64,000 nucleotides of DNA, from the NCBI RefSeq assembly GCF_003334815.1, contig NZ_QOWO01000001.1; one strand, 5' to 3'. Positions 10,435-10,682 of this stretch are shown here, piece after piece. Every line of letters begins with the position of its first letter. Positions within the stretch are counted from its first letter, which is position 1. The DNA comes from Escherichia coli (GTDB lineage: Bacteria > Pseudomonadota > Gammaproteobacteria > Enterobacterales > Enterobacteriaceae). The notes beneath the pieces were generated by a model. That model had not been told where the DNA came from. It worked only from the letters and a program-made list of their open reading frames with translations, and ran no database searches. The position numbers and the translations under genes are program-made.

Positions 10435-10682
10435 AGTAAGTCCTTTCGTAAAACTTTCGTTTCATTTCGTTTTGCCTATTAACGCCTTTCTATTAAGCAA
10501 ATGCAAGCCCACCTTGCCCATTGACGCAAGCTACTCTCGTTTCAGTGACTTTCATTATGTTTCTTTTGTGAATCAGATCAGAAAACTATTATCTTTCGTT
10601 TTATTTTTATTTCACCATGACGCAGTATCAACTGAAACAAAACGAAAGATTAATATCGCAGTAATCTGAACTGGAGAGGAAA
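10435..10682. promoter_or_regulatory. agaR/kbaZ divergent control region with repeated TTTCGTTT-type motifs (candidate AgaR operators)
   Basis: Multiple direct and inverted copies of ctttcgttt / aaacgaaag visible in the intergenic region. Confidence 0.55.

Follow-up and report, generated by a model that had tools for sequence, protein, structure and literature searches.

The array of repeated T-rich motifs between agaR and kbaZ is, in our judgement, very probably the set of operators for AgaR, which represses the aga regulon of E. coli for N-acetylgalactosamine and galactosamine. The array lies at positions 10435-10682 of a 64,000-nt stretch of DNA (hereafter, the window), and these coordinates correspond precisely to the 248-bp divergent gap from the agaR start to the kbaZ start. 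At least four copies of the motif in both orientations had been predicted within about 250 bp, and four exact copies of TTTCGTTT, three on the plus strand and one on the minus strand, were present in the 248 bp. The original prediction had also described these copies as several AgaR half-sites controlling both promoters. The assignment to AgaR and to both promoters was supported by the adjacent AgaR gene, four conserved 24-bp sites and the same motif in front of agaS, whereas the term half-site needed revision: the unit is a site of about 24 bp made of two tandem units, not an isolated 9-mer, and the copy at 10534 probably reflects chance. The feature itself is already known, having been characterized in 2004 and curated in regulatory databases. 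Our analysis of the sequence addressed the presence of the motif, its non-randomness, its structure, its regulon-specific location, its conservation and the identity of the repressor gene.

Over 5,300 complete E. coli genomes matched positions 9600-11000 with identities of 95-100%, and the annotation beneath these matches was agaR and kbaZ. The window is E. coli chromosome. The agaR ORF (9625-10434, minus strand) encodes a 269-aa DeoR/GlpR-family repressor according to the annotation of a 99.9% identical RefSeq genome, and kbaZ (also agaZ; 10683-11963, plus strand), assigned from its ORF and the annotation, is the first gene of the kbaZ-agaVWEF-agaA operon. The gene order in the 99.9% identical genome was garD, prlF, yhaV and agaR (minus strand), followed by kbaZ, agaV, agaW, agaE, agaF, agaA (named nagA there), agaS, kbaY, agaB, agaC, agaD and agaI. 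The yhaC gene, annotated as frameshifted (a pseudogene) in the same reference genome, falls at 184-1372 of the window, as transferred from positions 2584-3772 of locus L001. The agaV-agaW-agaE-agaF-agaA segment is complete in the window (11986-15699), whereas the K-12 MG1655 annotation has agaW and agaA as mere pseudogene remnants and lacks agaE and agaF; the window therefore comes from an E. coli strain with an intact aga cluster and not from K-12. The agaR-kbaZ gap is identical to that of K-12 MG1655 at 246 of 248 nt (99.2%), with differences at 10587 and, within the 3' tail of the site labelled O3 below, at 10611, and the gap upstream of agaS is identical in the window and K-12. For the agaR-kbaZ gap, adding 3,268,231 to a window position gives the corresponding K-12 position. 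Because of this near-identity at both gaps, the experiments performed in K-12 apply to the window sequence.

An Rfam search found no RNA family matching the agaR-kbaZ region; the best candidate for a structured RNA in the gap, Phe_leader, reached 21 bits (E = 0.45) where the gathering score is 55, and was dropped. A 100-aa ORF across the gap (10367-10669), which overlaps the agaR start and crosses the non-conserved spacer, was set aside as a mechanical artefact.

An unbiased count of all 8-mers identified TTTCGTTT as the most repeated 8-mer of the gap. Nine copies were found in the 64 kb, of which the agaR-kbaZ gap holds four and the agaA-agaS gap three; the two isolated ones, at 56114 and 63283, were attributed to chance, about four being expected in 64 kb and neither extending to the 14-mer or 24-mer pattern described below. 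The gap was then compared with randomized sequences that keep its own composition (35% G+C). Mononucleotide shuffles gave a mean of 0.019 copies of TTTCGTTT in the gap and first-order Markov simulations a mean of 0.069, and four copies were reached in none of 20,000 shuffles and none of 20,000 Markov simulations. The 250-bp stretches with the highest density of TTTCRTTT within the 64 kb were the two aga control regions. Exact copies of the 9-mer CTTTCGTTT were located in the gap at 10454-10462 and 10593-10601 on the plus strand and at 10640-10648 on the minus strand, together with the one-mismatch copies ATTTCGTTT (10464-10472) and CTCTCGTTT (10534-10542), both on the plus strand. A repeat finder recovered the motif units as direct repeats of 12-22 nt in the gap, and a 16-nt inverted repeat with 94% complementarity paired 10591-10606 with 10635-10650, that is, O3 with O4.

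Such repeats could in principle be a by-product of AT-rich, T-tract-rich promoter DNA that is low in complexity or curved and has no sequence-specific protein partner; the low G+C content of the gap would fit this, and T-rich units phased by about 10 bp have the geometry of curved DNA. The composition-preserving shuffles and simulations, however, never reached the observed count, and the central C-G of TTTCGTTT, irrelevant to T-tract curvature, was invariant across 74 species while the adjacent spacer stood at 46% identity. The 14-mer, moreover, recurred at aga promoters alone and not in other AT-rich gaps, both in the 64-kb window and in 458 kb of flanking sequence. Chance and curvature are therefore virtually excluded as the source of the array.

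Tandem repeats were also detected elsewhere in the window. A 113-bp unit is repeated in 3.5 copies at 1615-2007 (96% matching), with a terminator-like hairpin (AAACCCGCCGAAGCGGGTTTTT) in each unit; this array borders rnpB (about 1985-2361, minus strand, transferred from L001) and runs slightly into its 3' end. The presence of repeats downstream of the RNase P RNA gene has been known since the early 1980s. Tandem Repeats Finder further reported in-frame-sized repeats at 40147-40242 and 49462-49789 (a 33-bp unit in 2.9 copies and several units of 21-24 bp), which presumably encode repetitive charged protein segments.

The working unit of the array appears to be a site of about 24 bp in which two tandem T-rich units lie about 10 bp apart (CTTTCGTTTY, then RTTTCnTTTK). 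A motif scan was run with WRMMTTTCRTTTYRTTTYNYTTKK, which we take to be the AgaR site consensus of EcoCyc, after Ray & Larson 2004. It placed four sites in 10435-10682, with 0, 1, 3 and 3 mismatches. In the whole window, WRMMTTTCRTTTYRTTTYNYTTKK at up to three mismatches yielded seven matches compared to 0.17 expected, none of them outside the two aga gaps, and the 14-nt core TTTCRTTTYRTTTY at up to one mismatch gave the same picture, with seven matches compared to 0.61 expected. The consensus was built from the K-12 copies of these same sites, and matches to it are therefore circular for E. coli: they demonstrate that this consensus fits the window and are not independent evidence of function.

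The four sites in the agaR-kbaZ gap are referred to here as O1 to O4; the labels are our own, and the boundaries were set by the consensus. O1 (AAACTTTCGTTTCATTTCGTTTTG, 10451-10474, plus strand) has no mismatches, contains two tandem units of about 10 bp and adjoins the agaR start, being located about 16-40 bp upstream of the start codon. O2 (TGACTTTCATTATGTTTCTTTTGT, 10546-10569, plus strand) has one mismatch, is degenerate and abuts a CRP-like site. O3 (TATCTTTCGTTTTATTTTTATTTC, 10590-10613, plus strand) has three mismatches, all outside its first unit, and O4 (AATCTTTCGTTTTGTTTCAGTTGA, 10628-10651), also with three, is inverted on the minus strand. The agaA-agaS gap holds a distal AgaR-type site at 15738-15761 (plus strand, three mismatches) and two AgaR-type sites upstream of agaS, at 15897-15920 (plus strand, one mismatch) and 15975-15998 (inverted on the minus strand, no mismatches); all three are identical in K-12. 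A REP/BIME-like palindromic element (GATGCGACGC...GCGTCTTATCCGAC...GGCCGGATAAAGCG, 15775-15850), likewise identical in K-12, was observed in this gap and separates the distal site from the two agaS-proximal ones.

Conservation was examined by scanning species-representative genomes with the AgaR protein, which yielded 80 loci from Escherichia, Citrobacter, Klebsiella, Raoultella, Enterobacter, Kluyvera, Salmonella enterica subsp. arizonae and diarizonae, Yersinia, Serratia, Buttiauxella, Cedecea, Mixta, Pantoea, Ewingella and others. In 73 of the 80 loci, agaR and kbaZ were divergent as in the window and both aligned from residue 1, and a footprint was built from 74 agaR-kbaZ gaps (73 other species plus the window). 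The gap was 248-251 bp long in 66 of the 74 sequences, with an identity to the window of 58-93% (median 70%). Mean column identity over the 74 species was 0.89 for O1, 0.93 for O2, 0.88 for O3 and 0.88 for O4, and it reached 0.94 for the CRP-like site and 0.98 for the kbaZ ribosome-binding site; the variable stretches were 10509-10545 (0.46) and 10652-10672 (0.61). At least 95% identity was seen in 16 of the 24 columns of O1 and 15 of the 24 columns of O3, and the departures of O2 from the consensus were themselves conserved. The 8-mers found most often in at least two copies per gap were TTTCGTTT and its one-base-shifted form CTTTCGTT, each in 67 of the 74 species.

The positions of the sites were kept as well. 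The O1 core (anchor TTTCGTTTYATTTC, window position 10455) began 20-22 nt past the first gap base beside the agaR ATG in all 74 species, and in 70 of 73 species the conserved O4 core GAAACAAAACGAAAG preceded the kbaZ start by 48-50 bp. The spacing between O2 and the CRP-like site was 18 bp in 67 of 67 species, that between O2 and O3 was 44 bp in 63 of 67, and that between O3 and O4 was 41 bp in 60 of 71. The O1-O2 spacing lay between 90 and 97 bp, 95 being the most frequent value and 94-97 covering most species; since it shifts by single bases over this range, there was no support for strict helical phasing of O1 relative to O2.

The 14-nt core was about 500-fold denser in the gaps (335 copies in 18.2 kb, or 18.4 per kb) than in the flanks (16 copies in 458 kb, or 0.035 per kb). 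Of the 16 outside matches, eight fell in shortened clusters, either in front of agaS or, at the locus edge, after agaA; the motif thus accompanies the second AgaR-controlled promoter (agaS) too. Compact aga clusters were observed in Salmonella enterica subsp. diarizonae (L016) and arizonae (L023), Kosakonia (L059) and Phytobacter (L076); their layout is kbaZ-agaA, or kbaZ-agaF and then directly agaS, with AgaR-type motifs before agaS or after agaA. In five Citrobacter loci (L014, L019, L028, L031 and L039), a single AgaR-core-like 14-mer on the minus strand (TTTCGTTTTCTTTT or TTTCGTTTTGTTTT) occupies the same position, some 260 bp beyond the agaR stop codon, for example 4068-4081 of L014. It could mark an extra AgaR-controlled gene in this genus, or it could reflect shared ancestry of a chance match.

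The footprint also separates the copies under selection (O1 to O4 and the CRP-like site) from those that are not (10534 and 10444), and it thereby bears on whether the region holds two or three real operators plus chance look-alikes, which would make at least four half-sites an overstatement. Because the copy of CTCTCGTTT at 10534-10542 sits in a variable stretch, with a column identity of 0.46 and none of its nine columns conserved, it is probably a chance occurrence or specific to Escherichia and not a site. The partial copy CTTTCGTAAA (10443-10452, plus strand) has a mean column identity of 0.65, with the TCCTTT part alone conserved, and overlaps the agaR ribosome-binding site, CTTTCGTAA at 10444 overlapping the Shine-Dalgarno sequence (AAGGA on the minus strand); it is probably not an operator unit. 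O3 and O4, moreover, each depart from the 24-mer at three positions, and the preprint bioRxiv 10.1101/2024.12.09.627516 treats agaRp as AgaR-regulated via two sites. On the other hand, each of O1 to O4 forms a conserved block whose spacing is fixed in at least 60 species, and the first unit of both O3 and O4 is a perfect CTTTCGTTTT. A set of as few as two or three real operators is thus unlikely in our estimation, and the reading with four AgaR operators in the gap is retained.

The agaR product carries an HTH_DeoR domain at residues 18-74 (E = 3e-21) and a DeoRC domain at residues 89-247 (E = 5e-55) in Pfam. With the NCBIfam equivalog model NF040755, 'transcriptional repressor AgaR', it scored 465 bits where the cutoff is 260, and with NF007316 it scored 577 bits where the cutoff is 351, while the paralogue models SrlR, GlpR, UlaR, DeoR and FucR all remained below their own cutoffs. 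By these curated cutoffs, the gene beside the array encodes AgaR. A sequence search for structures returned no AgaR structure and no complex of a DeoR-family protein with DNA, the sole match being the DeoR C-terminal domain (7l6l). PMC3668189 gives the agaR product of E. coli C as 227 aa, compared to 269 aa for the ORF of the window. A 227-aa product would begin at Val43, within the HTH_DeoR domain, and the other 73 species align from agaR residue 1 with a fixed gap length; the 227-aa annotation looks like a start-codon miscall.

Physical binding by AgaR, sugar induction and derepression in an agaR deletion are taken from the literature. Purified AgaR is reported to bind and protect the DNA upstream of K-12 agaR, kbaZ and agaS, by DNase I footprint or EMSA (Ray & Larson 2004, as summarized in PMC3668189 and PMC4694137). 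PMC3668189 reports that Pz-lacZ and Ps-lacZ fusions were induced about 5-fold and about 20-fold by N-acetylgalactosamine, and that deleting agaR in E. coli C made expression of agaA (of the kbaZ operon) and agaS constitutive. AgaR is described in PMC4694137 as autoregulated and as binding directly in front of agaZ and agaS, with the identity of the inducer called unclear there. According to PMC5018945 and PMC4694137, which cite Leyn et al. 2012, AgaR binds in tandem to repeats in the agaZ, agaR and agaS intergenic regions. The sequence of the AgaR site was absent from the main texts of the synthetic-promoter papers PMC8667592, PMC9189660 and PMC11806353. The published binding and the derepression in the agaR deletion both support the operator reading.

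These data also weigh on the possibility that the sites are operators for another regulator, such as a paralogous DeoR-family repressor or a nucleoid protein, with AgaR acting elsewhere in the region. Sequence alone names no protein, and E. coli has many DeoR paralogues (SrlR, GlpR, YgbI, YciT, UlaR, DeoR and FucR), with weaker model matches. Nevertheless, the motif travels together with agaR and the aga genes in 73 of 73 other species, rearranged clusters included; the literature cited above ascribes binding in all three regions to purified AgaR at tandem repeat sites; and deletion of agaR suffices for constitutive expression (PMC3668189). A different binding protein is therefore very unlikely, and AgaR is retained as the protein that would occupy O1 to O4.

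The CRP-like site TGTGAATCAGATCAGA (10567-10582, plus strand) has one mismatch to TGTGA-N6-TCACA, and the left half of the site is overlapped by O2 over 3 bp. Two CRP-like matches of such quality were found compared to 1.67 expected, a number that is insignificant alone. Ray and Larson reportedly found in 2004 that the agaZ promoter requires cAMP-CRP. A CRP-plus-repressor arrangement of the aga cluster is described as known in PMC12226905. A promoter scan of the gap at a 9-of-12 threshold gave zero sigma-70 candidates on the plus strand and two on the minus strand, TTGATA-17-AAAAAT and GTGAAA-16-GATAAT. Conservation of the two candidates is doubtful, the -35 of TTGATA-17-AAAAAT not being conserved in other species, and a promoter assignment derived from the scan was dropped. 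Two models may be considered for the kbaZ promoter: the -10 element could be CAGTAT at 10623-10628, which would place CRP near -61.5, or it could be TATTTT at 10602-10607, which would place CRP near -40. A further conserved block at 10475-10508, assigned to neither strand, does not fit the AgaR consensus (mean column identity 0.88; 20 of 34 columns at least 95% identical). This block may hold the agaR core promoter (minus strand), with TTGCAT at 10506-10501, a 17-nt spacer and GTTAAT at 10483-10478, hexamers that were picked by eye and fall below the 9-of-12 threshold of the promoter scan; alternatively, it may be the site of another factor.

In the mechanism we propose, oligomeric AgaR would occupy the sites in both regions in the absence of inducer, four in the agaR-kbaZ gap and three upstream of agaS, and the bound repressor would shut down its own gene together with kbaZ-agaVWEFA and agaS-kbaY-agaBCDI. 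AgaR would be released when the cells grow on N-acetylgalactosamine or galactosamine, and the kbaZ promoter, once freed, would also need cAMP-CRP. O3 and the inverted O4 would bracket the only stretch able to hold the kbaZ core promoter, and AgaR at O2 could also hinder CRP activation, given the 3-bp overlap. AgaR at O1 would lie on the agaR transcription start or shortly past it, and O1 may cooperate with O2 to O4. A more demanding version, in which the operators act as one fixed three-dimensional assembly and an AgaR oligomer loops O1 to the kbaZ-proximal sites, is tentative and, on balance, unlikely. It draws on the near-invariant O2-CRP-O3-O4 spacing and on the length of the O1-O2 interval, which is kept while its sequence drifts. 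Looping would couple autoregulation to operon repression, and the block at 10475-10508 would then be either an agaR core promoter trapped in the loop or the site of a further factor.

The near-invariant spacing of the operators, the length-constrained but sequence-free O1-O2 spacer and the conserved block at 10475-10508 may be new. The region is of value as a positive control, in that motif spotting and gene assignment from raw sequence proved accurate, and the fixed spacing and the block at 10475-10508 offer small leads on how DeoR-family oligomers engage several operators.

Compared with the aga/gam operators of E. coli K-12 (Ray & Larson 2004, via PMC3668189, PMC5018945, PMC4694137 and PMC12226905), the window has the same locus, repressor and three controlled promoter regions (agaR, kbaZ and agaS), with no difference of substance; the CRP-plus-repressor arrangement of the K-12 regulon is probably shared as well. 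The tandem-repeat picture of the Proteobacteria AgaR regulon (Leyn et al. 2012) was reproduced here by the footprint of 74 Enterobacterales species. GlpR of the glp system, DeoR of the deo system and TagR of E. coli Nissle (PMC12226905) resemble AgaR in combining an N-terminal HTH_DeoR domain with a C-terminal sugar-phosphate sensor domain, and all are oligomeric repressors with several operators per control region, often plus a CRP site. The TagR operators (CTTTCAAAATGAAAG...), as given in PMC12226905, share CTTTC/GAAAG elements with the AgaR sites. The AgaR sites described here, with tandem direct units and whole sites in either orientation, are unlike the GlpR, DeoR and TagR operators in sequence and symmetry. 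The operators of GlpR and DeoR are palindromic.
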